Below, piece after piece: positions 1,441 through 29,152 of a stretch of 64,000 nucleotides of DNA. Below the pieces are notes generated by a model. That model was not told the origin of the DNA. It saw only the letters and a list, made by a program, of their open reading frames with translations, and made no database searches. The first letter of the stretch is position 1, and every line of letters begins with the position of its first letter. Both the position numbers and the translations under genes were made by a program. The DNA lies in NCBI GenBank assembly GCA_964508865.1, contig CAZDVP010000001.1:626-64625 (forward strand). Reading direction: 5' to 3'. The DNA is from an uncultured Bacteroides sp. GTDB lineage: Bacteria; Bacteroidota; Bacteroidia; Bacteroidales; Muribaculaceae.

Positions 1441-1448
1441 CAAAGTTA
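1441..1448 (-). promoter_or_regulatory. Bacteroidota-type -7 promoter box (TAACTTTG, within CTAACTTTGC)
   Basis: The reverse complement of caaagtta matches the TAnnTTTG consensus. The same 10-mer recurs at 3336, 21990 and 29049. Confidence 0.45.
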
Positions 1449-1474
1449 GCTCTAAAAACTGTGTTTTCCAAATA

Positions 1475-3336: not shown

Positions 3337-3344
3337 CAAAGTTA
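3337..3344 (-). promoter_or_regulatory. -7 promoter box TAACTTTG for repressor-like gene
   Basis: Matches TAnnTTTG and lies 17 nt upstream of the ATG at 3320. Confidence 0.45.
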
Positions 3345-3352
3345 GCCATAAA

Positions 3353-3369
3353 ATTTGGTAGTTACAAAT
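3353..3369. promoter_or_regulatory. candidate operator ATTTGGTAGTTACAAAT (ATTTG-N7-CAAAT)
   Basis: It sits between the divergent promoters. An exact reverse-complement copy is at 22443..22459 and a copy with one mismatch is at 22007..22023. Confidence 0.5.
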
Positions 3370-3377
3370 ATAAAACA

Positions 3378-3385
3378 TAACTTTG
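3378..3385 (+). promoter_or_regulatory. -7 promoter box TAACTTTG
   Basis: Matches TAnnTTTG and lies 12 nt upstream of the ATG at 3397. Confidence 0.45.
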
Positions 3386-3860: not shown

Positions 3861-4115
3861 CTATTTTGGTTTAGGTTTTCTTTTCGGTGTAGCAAAATCC
3901 TCGATGCCATTGCGAAGTTTGTCGATCTCATTCTCAAACCAGTCCATTTCCTCAATGGCACTTTGCATTGCCTCCCCGGTTTTGGAACATTGGAGACCAT
4001 CGGGCAAATTGTCGTATGCTTCCTGTTCTTCATCTCGAATCTCCCGAAGTCTGGACGTGGCATCGTCGATAAGTGAGCAAACTTCCAGTAATTCTTCTCG
4101 TCTTTGTTTGTTCAT
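3861..4115 (-). CDS. hypothetical acidic coiled-coil protein
   Basis: 84-aa ORF preceded by a terminator and intergenic gap. Confidence 0.55.
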   Translation of the reverse strand: MNKQRREELLEVCSLIDDATSRLREIRDEEQEAYDNLPDGLQCSKTGEAMQSAIEEMDWFENEIDKLRNGIEDFATPKRKPKPK

Positions 4116-4150
4116 ATCAAAATAAAGTAGTAAATTTGCGGAGTAAAAAA

Positions 4151-20505: not shown

Positions 20506-20574
20506 TGGTTGTCCCGGTGTGAGTCGAACACACAGACCTCGCACATTTAGCACGGGGTCGGCCAGTTCGGGACA
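20506..20574 (-). ncRNA. tRNA-like element with encoded CCA (non-canonical; no D arm or anticodon arm)
   Basis: The minus strand reads TGTCCCG-AACTGGCC-[GACCCCG..CGAGGTC hairpin]-T-GTGTG TTCGACT CACAC-CGGGACA-A-CCA. It has a 7-bp acceptor stem and a canonical T arm but is only 69 nt long. Confidence 0.4.
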
Positions 20575-20632
20575 TAAGGGCACAGCCCACGCTTCAAGGT
20601 CGGAGCATGGGCTGTGTGGGGTTCGGGGGAAA

Positions 20633-21193
20633 TTATTCCTCACTCTCAGAGCGGTTCACGGCGCAACATGTTTCGGTAGTTTCCGGAACACGCTCACCAG
20701 AGAGCGCATCGGTATCGTCAAACTTTGCACGGAAGTTGAGCGCATCAAAGGACGCTTTTGTAGCTTTGTGCATTTTCTTTTTGTAGTCACGAGCGCAGTC
20801 CTCCATATCGCGCTTTGTCGGCACAAGACCGATACGCGACCAGATAGACGCTGCTACGTCCCAGCGTTCAGCGTGTTTGCCGTCCAGAGTGCGGACGATG
20901 ATTGCCGCCGGGGTTGAAGAGCGCAGTTTCGTGGCTATGCCACCGTTATCCGCTTTGAGTGATGCTTCCAGAATTTTCACGTTCCAGAACGTGCTTACGA
21001 CGTTCTTCCACACGCGGAAGATTTCGTCCTGCTTGCGGTTGGTCGGGGTGTACTCCTCGCCTGAGAAGTTCACGGCGGACTCGTGGGTTTCGCCGTCGCG
21101 GTTGGTGCTGCGATACACGAGGGTAACGCCGGGCAGGTTGTTCACGTTGAGGTTCTCGAACTGGGTTGCAGAAAATTTAGTGATAGTTCCCAT
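20633..21193 (-). CDS. hypothetical protein
   Basis: The likely start is MGTITKFSATQ at 21193. The track ORF begins with GTG at 21313, inside the tRNA-like sequence. Confidence 0.55.
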   Translation of the reverse strand: MGTITKFSATQFENLNVNNLPGVTLVYRSTNRDGETHESAVNFSGEEYTPTNRKQDEIFRVWKNVVSTFWNVKILEASLKADNGGIATKLRSSTPAAIIVRTLDGKHAERWDVAASIWSRIGLVPTKRDMEDCARDYKKKMHKATKASFDALNFRAKFDDTDALSGERVPETTETCCAVNRSESEE

Positions 21194-21235
21194 TTTGTAC
21201 TGATTTTTGGGGTTGCTACGCAAAATCGCGTATTG

Positions 21236-21330
21236 TAGGCAGTGAGGGAGTCGAACCCTCACCCCACCTAAGTAGAGAACCGCTTCCAATACGCACGAGG
21301 TCAGACCACGCACGTTGCGGTAAATGCCTA
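21236..21330 (-). ncRNA. second tRNA-like acceptor/T-arm mimic
   Basis: The T arm (GT)GAGGG TTCGACT CCCTC(AC) is flanked by a TAGGCA...TGCCTA pairing. I could fold no anticodon or D arm, and there is no CCA. Confidence 0.3.
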
Positions 21331-21985
21331 TAGTCCACGCCTCCAGATTTCACCCTCTGAAGACGTGGTACTCAAATACGGTTTTTGCGCTTTTCGTACC
21401 TTTTCCTTACTCTTAGACATAACTCAAACCAATTGGAAATGCCTATTTTTTCGCTACGGGTCTGGGTATAACATTGGCTGTCATCCTCCCTGTGGGACTA
21501 CCCTGCGAGCGTCCGCTTCCATACGGGCATAGTAAGGGCTAACTAATTCGGAAAGTCGTACTTCAAGAACTTTTTTGCATAGGGTCCCCCCTACGGCCAC
21601 CGAAACACTGGGGCTTCGATAACAGGTACAGTTCGGACTCAGGGCGTTTAGACGTTCCTCCAATAGCGGCGGATTTAACACCTCACAATTCGGGCTGTTA
21701 CACTTCGCGCAAGGGCGAAATTAACCTTTTTGTGTCCTTTTTGGGTATAGCACAGCCTACCCTATAATCGGTTTTTACACCTACTTTGTGCTATGTTTCA
21801 GGCGTTTAGGGGTTGTGTCGTTGTGTCTGTCTGTGTCGTTGTTTGGGGTTGTTTTTAAGGGGTTAAAAATTGGGGTTGTTTAACTCTGTTTGTTCCTGTG
21901 ACCTTTGGCGTTATATGTAGGATAATTCTCACAGGTGAAAGTGACCTTTAATTTGTTGTTGGTCGTTGTTGTTGTTTCAACTTGA
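21236..21985 (-). ncRNA. candidate large structured ncRNA (promoter at 21991, tRNA-like 3' end)
   Basis: About 750 nt with no credible ORF. The tract is GC-rich and contains local stems such as TTCGC/GCGAA, ATAGCAC/GTGCTAT and CCTGTGA/TCACAGG. A CTAACTTTGC promoter box lies just upstream. Confidence 0.3.
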
Positions 21986-21990
21986 CGATG

Positions 21991-21998
21991 CAAAGTTA
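21991..21998 (-). promoter_or_regulatory. -7 promoter box TAACTTTG (CTAACTTTGC)
   Basis: It has the same 10-mer as the other early promoters and points into the ORF-free tract. Confidence 0.45.
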
Positions 21999-22006
21999 GG
22001 CACAAT

Positions 22007-22023
22007 ATTTGAAACTACCAAAT
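22007..22023. promoter_or_regulatory. operator copy (ATTTGAAACTACCAAAT)
   Basis: It has one mismatch to the reverse complement of 3353..3369 and the same flanking ATAAAAC. Confidence 0.45.
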
Positions 22024-22099
22024 ATAAAACGTTAAGAAATGTTAACGAGATTTTCAAAATAGGTCTATCTAATTGATAATCAGTTAGAAAAAATTTTTG

Positions 22100-22530
22100 A
22101 TTGATAGGGGGCAAAATTGCACCGGTGCAAAGGGGGTAAATTGCGCCAAAATAGGTTAATTGGCTGATATATAGATATTTAACTAAATTTGGGGTTGTTA
22201 GCTGCTCAAAGGGTAATTATAGACTATATAAGGGGCAAATTTGGGGGGCAATATCCGGCAAAGGATAGGGGGGCAAATTGGGGGTAAAAATAGATTCTAT
22301 ATAATAGACTATATAAGGGGGCAAAGTAAGGATAACAAAGGGGCAAAGGATAACAACGTAACAAATTGCACAAATAGGGGCAAAGTGTGCAAAGATAGGG
22401 GCAAAGGGTATGAAAATAGATATAAGTAATTGAAAATCATATATTTGTAACTACCAAATAGGGAATAAATAACTTAATTGATTGATATGCAAATATTTAT
22501 GCAAAGATAGGGGCAAAATAGGGGTTAAGA
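22100..22530. repeat. iteron cluster, about 9 copies of (ATA)GGGGCAAA plus a 17-nt direct repeat ATAGACTATATAAGGGG
   Basis: Copies lie near 22107, 22232, 22245, 22268, 22317, 22340, 22377, 22397 and 22509. The region is AT-rich and ORF-free, which suggests an origin or partition site. Confidence 0.6.
22443..22459. promoter_or_regulatory. operator copy (exact reverse complement of 3353..3369)
   Basis: A 17/17 match: atttgtaactaccaaat. Confidence 0.5.
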
Positions 22531-24029: not shown

Positions 24030-26018
24030 TTATTTGAATTGGGAGATCGTATCGCTGGCTAAGGAATCGTCATAGCCATGAGCGACATTCCAACGATGAA
24101 CTTTTCGAGCAGAGAAAAGGTTCTTAGTCATCTTCACATCTGAGCCTTGAATCTGACGTTCCGTTTGCGATAAGGTAGCAAGAAATTCTTCGACTGGTAT
24201 CTCTTGCTCGTTGCACCACATCACTACCGAGCCTTTGTAGATATATCCTGGGAGAGAGCGGCCTTCTACTCGCTGTTGTTCGGTATTGGTGAAATACTCC
24301 GGTCGATACTCTGAGTCAAATCCAACGAAGGTCTGGTAAAATCTACGGATAATCGTTTCGATGGGAGTCAACCTCTCTTCGGCTCCATTCTCCATGAGAT
24401 TTTTAGTAAACGCTCTGTCAAGTCGGGTCTCGGCTGCAATCTCTGAACGAGTCTTGGGAACTGGAGTGTTCTCAATAACCGTAGCCTCGATGTTCCGAAA
24501 GCGTTTCAAAGAGACCTTTAACCCACGCTTGCCATCGACCTCAGCCTCTTCCCAATCGAAGATGAAATGAGGTTGGAGATCTTCGATGGATGTGAAGCCA
24601 AGTTTGTAGGTGCCGTATGAATCCTCATACACCCCCTTCTCAACGGCACCGGCCATATCGTCATAGATTTGCTCGGCCAGTTTCAAAAGGTCTTCTACTG
24701 GAAGTACAGCATCAATCATTTTGAGGTCGTTGATAGAGTCGCTTTCAATCGGATCTCCATTCTCGTCATAATCCCTCGTATCGTAGTTCTCGGCATAGAG
24801 ATCCCAGCAACCCCACCAAAACAGATTGATGAATAATTTAACTGGAGAATCGTATGTGACAGCCGGATCAAGAGATGCAGTTATTTTCTGTGCTTCCGAT
24901 TCAGTGAAGTAAGGCTTGGTCTTATAGGGATTGTTGATTTTAGGTTTAACCTGGGAAATACGAGTGGAACGTTTTCCAAAGGGTTCTTCACCATTCAATT
25001 CAACAATTCCCAGAGAATCCTCAAATTCTTCAGAATCCGAAGAAGGCTGGAAGCCTTCCACATTGGATAGGGGTTTAAGGGGGAAGTCCTCTTCCCCCTT
25101 TTCAACAGGCGAAGCTGGTTTATTATTTATTTTATTATATATATTATTACTGTTGTGCAGAAATGCACAGCTTTTTGGCCCTTCGGTGTGCATTTCTGCA
25201 CACCCCCCTGTGTAAAAATGCACAGCCAGTTGAGCCAAAGTGCAGAGCAAATTCTGGTCAATTTTGGTGTTTTCTGAGAAACTCCCAGTGTAAAATGACT
25301 CTTTCATGGATTCGTACTCATCGTTGTGCATTTCTGCACAGGGAGTGGTAGAAAATACCATATCAAAAGTGGTTTTGTCTGTGCATTTTTGCACAATCTC
25401 TGCGAACTGCTGAAGAAATCTGTGCATTTTTACACCGGTGTGTGTGCTTTTACACATAGTTGTGTATTTCTGCACACCGTTGTGTATTTCTGCACAACTT
25501 TCGCTTTCTGAATCGTTTTGCTGTGCATTTTTACACACCTCTGTGTATTTTTGCACAGGGTTGAGCATAATTGACGATCCTTGTAGGCCGGCAAGTTCTT
25601 TTCGACACCCTTGCTCTATGGCTCCTTCCAGTGCTGAGATTCCTTCTTTTTTGAATCGCTGGGTGAAAGAGTTCTGTTCTGTGTAATCAAGGGACTCGAA
25701 GTGTTTGACAAGACTGACAAATTCATCGCCATTAAAGATGATGGCATTGGGCCGCGTCTTAATTAGTCCAAGACCTTCCAGTTTCGCAAGAGAAGCGGTA
25801 ACTGTTCGCCGGTTGAGACCGAGAATTTCACTTATACGTTTTTGGCTTACAAATATTGTTTGCTCCAGTAATGAAGTCTTCATTTGCTGACGATACTCAT
25901 CCGCCAGATAGATGAGTATGATTTTGTCCGGAGCGGATTCTGCCAACTGAAAAATCGCTTTGTAGTATAATCCGTACCGAACTGTTTTTGGTTCAGGATT
26001 TGACATAGCGCATTTCAA
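24030..26018 (-). CDS. wHTH replication-initiator-like protein with internal repeat region
   Basis: 662 aa. The N-terminus is winged-helix-like (VSQKRISEILGLNRRTVTASLAKLEGLGLIK). The central CAEMHN/VQKYT peptide repeats are encoded by the palindrome array. Confidence 0.6.
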   Translation of the reverse strand: MKCAMSNPEPKTVRYGLYYKAIFQLAESAPDKIILIYLADEYRQQMKTSLLEQTIFVSQKRISEILGLNRRTVTASLAKLEGLGLIKTRPNAIIFNGDEFVSLVKHFESLDYTEQNSFTQRFKKEGISALEGAIEQGCRKELAGLQGSSIMLNPVQKYTEVCKNAQQNDSESESCAEIHNGVQKYTTMCKSTHTGVKMHRFLQQFAEIVQKCTDKTTFDMVFSTTPCAEMHNDEYESMKESFYTGSFSENTKIDQNLLCTLAQLAVHFYTGGCAEMHTEGPKSCAFLHNSNNIYNKINNKPASPVEKGEEDFPLKPLSNVEGFQPSSDSEEFEDSLGIVELNGEEPFGKRSTRISQVKPKINNPYKTKPYFTESEAQKITASLDPAVTYDSPVKLFINLFWWGCWDLYAENYDTRDYDENGDPIESDSINDLKMIDAVLPVEDLLKLAEQIYDDMAGAVEKGVYEDSYGTYKLGFTSIEDLQPHFIFDWEEAEVDGKRGLKVSLKRFRNIEATVIENTPVPKTRSEIAAETRLDRAFTKNLMENGAEERLTPIETIIRRFYQTFVGFDSEYRPEYFTNTEQQRVEGRSLPGYIYKGSVVMWCNEQEIPVEEFLATLSQTERQIQGSDVKMTKNLFSARKVHRWNVAHGYDDSLASDTISQFK
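25154..25557. repeat. array of 11 copies of 16-bp palindrome TGTG[CT]A-N4-T[GA]CACA
   Basis: Copies start at 25154, 25187, 25209, 25325, 25380, 25421, 25441, 25461, 25481, 25522 and 25542, all inside the CDS. Confidence 0.75.
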
Positions 26019-26285: not shown

Positions 26286-26864
26286 TTATCGGACTTTGCC
26301 TATTTTATAGATAATACCTCCGATGAAATTTCCCACTACTGTTCCGATATAGGCTAATGCAGCTGACCAGGATAACGCCTCCCAACCAACGGAGTAGTAG
26401 AAGGCATCAGCGACTGAGTGGGTAAATCCGCAAAGCACAAATGCCGGGATTCCGATAAGCAATGGCCAAGGGGTTTTCTTCCAAGTGCTGACGGCCAATG
26501 TCATTATGTAACCGCAACCGGCACCTCTCGCCATACATTCCAGGAATCCCCAATCTGTACGTTGCTCGACGATGGATTGACAACTGCTGATAATGTCCGG
26601 ATTGAATGAAGTCCAGAATGACATCAAGATACAGCCGATAATATTTCCGATAAGGACGATGAGTGAGAGCAGTACGTCTGAAAATTCCTTTGTACGTTTG
26701 ATTGCTCCAGTGTAGAGCACGAAACTGAACGTGCATACCGACATGAGACCGATGCTGAATAGGACTGCTCCTAATGGGCCGGGGTACTGGAGGCTCATAT
26801 AAGCCCCCAGCGATATTGCGGCCCCGCCCAGCATAAGGTTTAGGATTTGTTTAATGATTTTCAT
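26286..26864 (-). CDS. formate/nitrite transporter (FNT)-like membrane protein, short form
   Basis: 192 aa and multi-pass. LCGFTHSVADAFY resembles the FNT signature GFEHSIAN. Confidence 0.5.
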   Translation of the reverse strand: MKIIKQILNLMLGGAAISLGAYMSLQYPGPLGAVLFSIGLMSVCTFSFVLYTGAIKRTKEFSDVLLSLIVLIGNIIGCILMSFWTSFNPDIISSCQSIVEQRTDWGFLECMARGAGCGYIMTLAVSTWKKTPWPLLIGIPAFVLCGFTHSVADAFYYSVGWEALSWSAALAYIGTVVGNFIGGIIYKIGKVR

Positions 26865-29049: not shown

Positions 29050-29057
29050 CAAAGTTA
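29050..29057 (-). promoter_or_regulatory. -7 promoter box TAACTTTG (CTAACTTTGC)
   Basis: It lies 21 nt upstream of the recombinase ATG. Confidence 0.45.
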
Positions 29058-29152
29058 GAAAAAGAAACTGATATAACAAAGAAATAGCACGAAAAAATGT
29101 GCTTTTGAGGCAATATTTTTCGCGCTATAATTTTAGATGAAATGATGTCTGA

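Follow-up and report, generated by a model that had tools for sequence, protein, structure and literature searches.

The stretch of DNA analysed here (the window) is 64,000 nucleotides (nt) long, corresponding to bases 626-64625 of a 96,956-bp contig filed under an uncultured Bacteroides sp., and all positions below are counted from its first letter. On the minus strand, and in the order in which they would be transcribed, lie a Bacteroides-type promoter, a non-coding leader of about 0.8 kb (21194-21990) ending in a transfer RNA (tRNA)-like element that we call TLS1, an open reading frame of 186 amino acids (ORF1, 20633-21193), a second tRNA-like element (TLS2) and the start of a further open reading frame (ORF2). 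The leader has a conserved partner in ORF1, which shows 50-86% identity to its counterparts in relatives and has no match in Pfam, PHROG, Atlas or Foldseek. The leader and its two tRNA-like elements are the subject of this analysis.

Genes for a Mu-like portal, a tail sheath, an NAD-dependent ligase and a reverse transcriptase are present on the contig, whose G+C content is 42.8%, compared to ~55% for the remaining contigs of the 1.98-Mb bin. Because of these genes and the gap in G+C content, we consider it phage sequence that was probably binned with an unrelated genome; the bin organism need not be the host. The source is a temperate Bacteroidales myophage of roughly 97 kb. Relatives are found among IMG/VR contigs of 77-110 kb, many human-gut metagenome contigs, and prophages of Bacteroides neonati, B. 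graminisolvens, B. ovatus, Bacteroides sp. 51 and one Alistipes bin, which places the host in the Bacteroidales. They were gathered mostly via ORF1 (11 viral, 80 metagenome and 7 genome loci) and are referred to below as the window group, consisting of the close relatives, and the distant group, in which ORF1 is ~55% identical to that of the window. Similar DNA was not found in phage GenBank records. An exact T-arm pattern had no match in IMG/VR; two looser patterns retrieved mostly unrelated loci, from which an nhmmer filter recovered eight more members of the family.

The initial annotation had described the tract between promoter and ORF1 as free of open reading frames, and this was confirmed for 21194-21990(-). 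TAA, TAG and TGA are present in all six frames between 21150 and 22050, so that no single stop reassignment opens a frame. The six-frame peptides of the relatives can be matched to one another in every frame and on either strand, with changes of frame, which indicates conservation of the nucleotide sequence rather than of a gene. A recoded or hidden gene was therefore rejected, given the stops in all frames and the lack of any one conserved frame among the relatives' peptides. The tract had also been called GC-rich; it is indeed richer than its surroundings (0.48 vs. about 0.43), but the enrichment is modest.

The promoter (21991-22022, minus strand) is an exact match to the Bacteroides consensus, with TTTG, a 20-nt spacer and TAACTTTG, and is conserved in relatives. 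The early-promoter box noticed initially turned out to be the -7 element (21991-21998, minus strand) of this full consensus, TTTG-N20-TAnnTTTG. Six full consensus promoters occur in the window compared to 1.4 expected, a number reached in 0 of 100 shuffles. The other five (TTTG-N18-21-TAnnTTTG) are at 1441-1472(-), 3337-3368(-), 3354-3385(+), 4107-4138(+) and 29050-29080(-), and 22441-22460 repeats the -33/spacer portion of the leader promoter. No terminator was seen on the minus strand between the promoter and ORF1; the tract is contiguous with ORF1 and is therefore a 5′ leader and not a free-standing gene, and the tRNA-like end belongs to this leader as a conserved component. Thus, of the large structured non-coding RNA first suggested, a non-coding, promoter-driven and conserved RNA with covarying hairpins and a tRNA-like end remains, while its standing as an independent gene beside a tRNA does not.

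A non-coding tract of 0.8-1 kb occupies the same slot in ~60 related gut phages and Bacteroides/Alistipes prophages, and in most of the gathered relatives roughly 1 kb without ORFs separates ORF1 from the same promoter. The leader is conserved over two deeply diverged groups of phages and prophages. The window itself is without a close relative, and the parts of its leader conserved by BLAST are limited to the promoter plus first hairpin, 21716-21625, 21478-21340 and the last 90 nt. Apart from promoter pieces, no paralogues of the tract were detected elsewhere in the 97-kb contig. The initial annotation had proposed a comparison with Rfam and a search for homologs with covariation analysis. 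The latter was fruitful, yielding conserved relatives whose stems covary. The former assigned no known family: nothing in the tract matched at gathering thresholds, including GOLLD, ROOL, transfer-messenger RNA (tmRNA) and group I introns, no GOLLD or ROOL model matched at E <= 10 over 20800-22400, and the sole relevant permissive match was to the tRNA model, below threshold. A tmRNA (RF00023) was ruled out on several counts, namely the lack of an ARAGORN tmRNA call, of an Rfam match and of a tag reading frame, and acceptor strands lying within 94 nt.

TLS1 (21236-21329, minus strand) folds as a tRNA-like cloverleaf, with an acceptor stem, a D-like arm containing a conserved UGG, a short variable arm, a T-arm with its loop at 21255-21249, and a discriminator A at 21236. 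The tRNA-like unit had been recognized from its T-arm at the outset and was confirmed (z = -3.2), with covariation in its support. In 17 relatives, with the window excluded, 98.9% of acceptor and T-arm cells are paired compared to 39-54% when the partner strand is slid; both sides change in 6 of the 11 pairs, and the covariation score was not reached by any shuffle. The T-stem is 100% paired, with five of its six pairs covarying. These formal counts are limited to the acceptor and T-arm, since whole-unit MAFFT alignments shifted in register for the 5′ acceptor strand and the inner arms; the remaining parts were parsed from anchors. With constraints on the T-arm and acceptor alone, one and the same four-way junction forms in all 24 representatives. 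A covariance model (R1) derived from the 17-relative alignment, from which the window had been left out, finds the window's TLS1 at 50.6 bits (E 1e-9). In each of three Bacteroides genomes, R1 finds exactly one copy and, at E <= 0.01, none of the ordinary tRNAs. Four of 151 Bacteroidaceae genomes give a match, one being a real tRNA-Tyr and another a similar element in a different context.

The element keeps the geometry of a tRNA, i.e. the 12-layer acceptor/T-arm stack, a T-loop of the form TTCRANN and the discriminator. The T-loop is followed by exactly 12 nt, the discriminator and then CAAT in 56 of 57 unique sequences, and the discriminator (N73) is A in 48. A U precedes the acceptor at position -1 in 22 of 24 representatives; this count rests on hand-checked sequences, as an automatic search for the 5′ acceptor partner chose spurious distant sites. 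The anticodon has gone: the loops of arm 2 vary from 4 to 11 nt with no conserved anticodon, and ARAGORN reads homologues as Ser-ACT, '???', Cys-GCA or nothing. A decoding tRNA was ruled out for this reason, and because ARAGORN calls no tRNA gene in the window and TLS1 scores 23.3 bits against the Rfam tRNA model (RF00005), where the cut-off is 29.

The CAAT trailer has a counterpart in native tRNA genes. In two Bacteroides genomes (G001 and G002), N73 followed by CAA occurs after the T-arm 43 and 29 times, respectively, compared to 19 and 10 for a control pattern, and N73 followed by CCA shows no enrichment over control. This suggests that tRNA genes lacking an encoded CCA are the rule in G001 and G002; TLS1 therefore copies the 3′ context of such genes. 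The 42 nt between TLS1 and the ORF1 ATG at 21193 (21194-21235, minus strand) contain the invariant CAAU (21235-21232), a small covarying hairpin (21232-21217) and an A-rich translation start region.

Two further tRNA-like elements were seen in other genomes. One (L332, G122:C8:115708-118777; element at 117208-117277) is compact and resembles TLS1 in design, with a GG-loop arm, a tetraloop arm, a T-arm and CAAT; it belongs to another Bacteroidaceae genome and lies just after the stop codon of a gene, with no ORF1 homologue within 1.5 kb. The other (L331, G079:C60:97827-100935; element at 99327-99435) is tRNA-shaped with a ~40-nt insert in the region of the anticodon arm and receives no ARAGORN call; it may be an intron-bearing tRNA or a mimic.

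TLS2 (20506-20574, minus strand) lies between the ORF1 stop codon (20633) and the ORF2 ATG (20487), about 20 nt before that ATG. This tRNA-like minihelix (z = -3.6) combines a Watson-Crick acceptor of 7 bp with a single arm and a T-arm, and has both a discriminator A and an encoded CCA; it is a sequence type separate from TLS1 that R1 does not detect. A fold of the ORF1-ORF2 spacer shows a stable 13-bp hairpin directly before it (20581-20616, minus strand), as in L004 and L299/L300. Elements of the same design and unrelated sequence follow ORF1 in at least five other lineages (L004, L005/L246/L248, L287/L292, L299/L300 and L311/L313). The start regions of ORF1 and ORF2 are nearly identical, and the order stable hairpin, tRNA-like element, A-rich start region and ATG is repeated at TLS1, at TLS2 and in relatives. 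The presence of linked elements on either side of ORF1 points to a role in RNA processing.

Upstream of TLS1, the leader is built of hairpin modules whose stems covary around conserved loops, with at least eight covarying helices including one crossing pair. To score the strand, both G.U and A.C were counted as pairs, making the test strand-neutral. On the ORF1-sense strand, G.U outnumbers A.C by 64 to 5 in the window group, which assigns the structure to the transcript predicted from the promoter. Most of the helices picked out by the initial annotation were recovered as such modules. Its CCTGTGA/TCACAGG pairing is the 7-bp stem (21935-21895) of the first hairpin, M1 (21895-21935, minus strand), which has a conserved loop of ~27 nt and four different compensated stems (the window, L002/L241, L004 and L008); in other relatives a different module holds this position. 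The ATAGCAC/GTGCTAT pairing corresponds to helix 1 (21794-21787/21754-21747) of a pseudoknot-like module (21744-21794, minus strand). Helix 1 is a perfect 7-bp Watson-Crick helix in 11 of 11 sequences compared, in seven sequence types; per-sequence shuffles attain this in 0.2-2.5% of trials. A small hairpin lies inside helix 1, and helix 2 (21781-21777/21748-21744), read by eye from the alignment, crosses it; the crossing suggests a pseudoknot. The GGGTA/TACCC pairing, proposed initially as overlapping the ATAGCAC helix, is better read as GGUGU/AUACC, which crosses that helix.

The TTCGC/GCGAA helix was also upheld, as a hairpin with covarying stems (21702-21721, minus strand; z = -3.7) and a conserved CCUUGC loop. 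It is the first copy of a hairpin type with a CCCyUGUG loop that occurs with 15-17 distinct stems and 19 G.U to 4 A.C on the ORF1-sense strand (stem counts, here and below, were parsed from anchors, with a weak partner-shuffle control and many near-identical sequences). The second copy (21596-21623, minus strand) has 11 contiguous pairs, four of them G.U, which become A.C mismatches if read on the other strand. Between the two copies lies a BLAST-conserved two-tier hairpin, 'island A' (21643-21682, minus strand), with AUUGGAG in its conserved apical loop; its outer helix has three covarying pairs by RNAalifold, and the inner 3-bp helix covaries by eye. Further downstream are a conserved motif, GCCAAUGUUAUACCC (21464-21478, minus strand), common to the window and distant groups, and hairpin HB (21414-21445, minus strand), with a 7-bp stem, a conserved 18-nt loop containing CAAUUGGUUUG, 11 distinct stems and 9 G.U to 0 A.C. 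The last module, HC (21335-21368, minus strand), has a 13-bp stem with loop GGGUGAAA (z = -6.0), 13 distinct stems and 35 G.U to 0 A.C. HC ends 4 nt before TLS1 and is present in both groups, being absent only from the L002/L003/L242 lineage.

Not all of the window's leader is of this kind. About 21890-21800, its 5′ third is an A/C-rich spacer (21800-21890, minus strand) of low complexity, unconserved and unstructured, which replaces a structured module with the conserved loop AAAGCGAAAGC carried by all close relatives. The GGGGTTGT repeats reported initially are present here, as three copies of ACAACCCC on the transcript (21879-21872, 21852-21845 and 21816-21809), but they are specific to the window and not conserved. 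A further copy of the ACAACCCC motif immediately precedes the ORF1 start codon.

The slot upstream of TLS1 holds a catalogued RNA in the distant group, Bacteroidales-2 RNA (RF02943; 392 nt). The model scores 265-405 bits there on the strand opposite to ORF1 (L304:579-967(-), L311:615-1000(-), L312:592-981(-), L326:620-1007(-) and G001:C3:466743-467132(-)), and the RNA ends ~190 nt upstream of the homologous HC hairpin, TLS1 and ORF1. A consensus promoter (L304 1049-1079(-)) lies on its strand, as does a U-tailed 3′ hairpin, and the few wobble pairs of the distant group favour this strand by 6 to 2. Among the 151 Bacteroidaceae genomes, RF02943 and the TLS1 model R1 are both confined to the same prophage. 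The RF02943 model has no match in the window at E <= 10, nor in seven window-group loci at E <= 1, on either strand. A nhmmer profile of the distant-group region nevertheless aligns co-linearly with window-group leaders (E 1e-9 to 1e-4), the RF02943 region and the window leader have short motifs in common in an order that is not fully co-linear, and the reverse complement of GCCAAUGUUAUACCC falls inside the RF02943 consensus. The two RNAs are thus alike in slot, lineage and short motifs, and differ in that RF02943 has its own promoter, gives no model match to the window and is structured on the opposite strand, whereas the structured strand of the window group is ORF1-sense. They may be homologous with a switch of functional strand, both strands may be used, or the same building blocks may simply recur.

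Other features lie further from the leader. The UG27 reverse transcriptase gene of the phage lies 11 kb from it; this gene occurs in three of five related contigs, a pattern uninformative as to a link between the two. Just upstream of the leader promoter, 22100-22530 is AT-rich, ORF-free and has many TTTGCCCC repeats (minus strand), with an initiator-like winged helix-turn-helix gene nearby (24030-26018, minus strand); this stretch may be a replication origin or control region. An ORF of 192 amino acids at 26286-26864(-) matches the formate/nitrite transporter family (Pfam PF01226, E 1e-17).

We propose, with a probability of roughly one half, that TLS1 and TLS2 are t-element-like signals for cleavage of an early-operon transcript by host RNase P and RNase Z. 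Transcription would start at the host-type promoter, the hairpin modules would fold first, and TLS1 would then form ~40 nt before ORF1. Cleavage by host RNase P on the 5′ side of TLS1 would free a leader of roughly 0.65 kb with HC as its protective 3′ end, and RNase Z cleavage after the discriminator would free a tRNA-like RNA of roughly 95 nt, the same cut leaving an ORF1 mRNA that begins with a small 5′ hairpin. At TLS2, a further RNase P cut would define where the ORF1 mRNA ends, again behind a stable hairpin. We favour this model over its rivals because the features used by processing enzymes have been kept, the anticodon has been lost, and the elements are placed at gene borders behind hairpins. 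The canonical T-loop, 12-nt spacing, N73, U(-1) and UGG of TLS1 are all features read by RNase P, RNase Z or the CCA-adding enzyme, and tRNA-like folds with a T-arm lie at mRNA borders at both TLS1 and TLS2, in the relatives as in the window.

The closest parallel is with the t-elements of plant mitochondria, which are taken to direct RNase P and RNase Z cuts at mRNA ends and, once excised, can persist as small RNAs (Forner et al. 2007, PMC1920247). Like TLS1, they have a non-canonical cloverleaf with a GGTTCRANYCC T-arm and an acceptor stem and lie directly 5′ or 3′ of mRNAs inside long transcripts (PMC1920247). The phage elements differ in belonging to a bacteriophage rather than an organelle and in following a long structured leader; cleavage is predicted here, and no common ancestry is implied. 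Similar in layout are MALAT1-mascRNA and MEN-beta, long non-coding RNAs ending in a tRNA-like cloverleaf with a degenerate anticodon arm, where RNase P cleavage generates the 3′ terminus of the long transcript and the small tRNA-like RNA is freed by RNase Z. These are eukaryotic nuclear RNAs, in which a triple helix rather than a hairpin protects the upstream RNA and no mRNA follows. A phage example for comparison is the C4 antisense RNA, a small structured RNA released by host RNase P from the immI operon leader of phages P1/P7. It likewise derives from the leader of an early/immunity operon, but is an antisense regulator and has no T-arm cloverleaf. TLS1 was itself considered as an antisense regulator of the ORF1 start region and rejected, its complementarity being inconsistent among relatives (alignments by eye).

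Several observations weigh against the processing model. Its chief shortcoming is that a mere cutting signal leaves the ~600 nt of elaborate conserved structure upstream unaccounted for; this upstream RNA may have a role of its own, as in a GOLLD/ROOL-like reading. The fold energy of the whole 797-nt tract is unremarkable (z = -1.0). The acceptor stem of the window group has just 4-6 canonical pairs together with U.U or U.C mismatches, which could weaken recognition by the enzymes, and its D-like arm carries an inserted hairpin of 23 nt. Lastly, the slot upstream of TLS1 in the distant group is taken by an RNA gene on the opposite strand, RF02943, and no promoter for TLS1 and ORF1 was found in that group.

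An uncut leader acting as a cis-regulatory RNA, through processive antitermination, protection of the 5′ end, or recruitment of ribosomes without Shine-Dalgarno pairing in the host, is unlikely in our estimation. It would account for the continuity of leader and ORF1 with no intervening terminator, for the position of both TLS elements 20-40 nt before very similar A-rich start regions, and for the threefold repetition of the A/C-rich start-region motif in the window's leader, with the conserved loops as candidate binding sites. Exact tRNA geometry and a native pre-tRNA trailer are needless for such roles, however, the leader is very long for a cis element, and the window has lost or replaced whole modules yet kept TLS1.

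It is likewise unlikely, though conceivable, that the leader represents a new class of large ornate phage RNA of 0.6-0.9 kb with an attached tRNA domain lacking an anticodon. Such an RNA, the counterpart of Bacteroidales-2 on the other strand and of the rank of GOLLD or ROOL, would be released by RNase P and act in trans during early infection or lysogeny.

We think it distinctly improbable that the tRNA-like RNAs are themselves the products, with TLS1 and TLS2 as tRNA mimics and the leader merely their precursor or carrier. Such mimics could be decoys for host defence nucleases that cut tRNAs, or sponges or substrates for tRNA-modifying, CCA-adding or charging enzymes. The elbow features of TLS1 (T-loop and UGG) are indeed kept beyond what a minimal acceptor/T minihelix needs, and TLS2 encodes ACCA. 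Without a conserved anticodon arm, however, anticodon nucleases would have no target; TLS1 and TLS2 have no identity elements in common, and their fixed place before start regions and after stable hairpins fits punctuation better.

A free-standing large ornate RNA of the GOLLD/ROOL kind, with a linked tRNA-like domain, a trans function such as forming an assembly or binding ribosomes or proteins, and ORF1 merely downstream, is very unlikely. GOLLD and ROOL are large multi-helix RNAs of phages and prophages found near or linked to tRNAs, which sometimes lie in the GOLLD linker (bioRxiv 10.1101/2024.12.08.627333). The 0.6-0.9 kb length of our leader, its eight or more covarying helices with a crossing pair, its occurrence in phages and prophages, and the presence of a catalogued 392-nt structured RNA in the same slot of distant relatives are all in keeping with this idea. 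The leader differs in matching neither model, in being continuous with an mRNA and in its modular, partly unstructured make-up, with modules that come and go among close lineages and no structure in the window's 5′ third. It is also found only with ORF1, in part by construction, most relatives having been found through ORF1.

A DNA-level element (a phage attachment site modelled on the 3′ end of a host tRNA gene, an origin of replication, operator repeats or a decaying tRNA pseudogene), as might be suggested by the iteron-like repeats and initiator-like gene just upstream and by the many phages that integrate into tRNA genes, is nearly excluded: TLS1 stays between the upstream tract and ORF1 in integrated prophages (200-600-kb contigs), so it does not mark a prophage end, covariation is seen in both acceptor strands and in the inner arms, stems vary around conserved loops, the reverse of operators, the G.U bias is strand-specific, and conservation persists down to about 50% ORF1 identity.

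The leader adds an uncatalogued structured RNA of several hundred nucleotides. We found no description in the searchable literature of the biology of Bacteroidales-2, of the TLS1 element or of phage use of tRNA-processing punctuation. The orphan Bacteroidales-2 family now gains a genomic context, in the early control region of one prophage lineage, beside a tRNA-like element. Lysogens of the distant group exist in culture collections (Bacteroides neonati MS4 and B. graminisolvens DSM 19988). Punctuation of transcripts by tRNA processing has precedents in mitochondria and in a few long RNAs of eukaryotes; if the processing model is true, common phages of the human gut would use the tRNA-processing enzymes of their hosts to punctuate their early transcripts.

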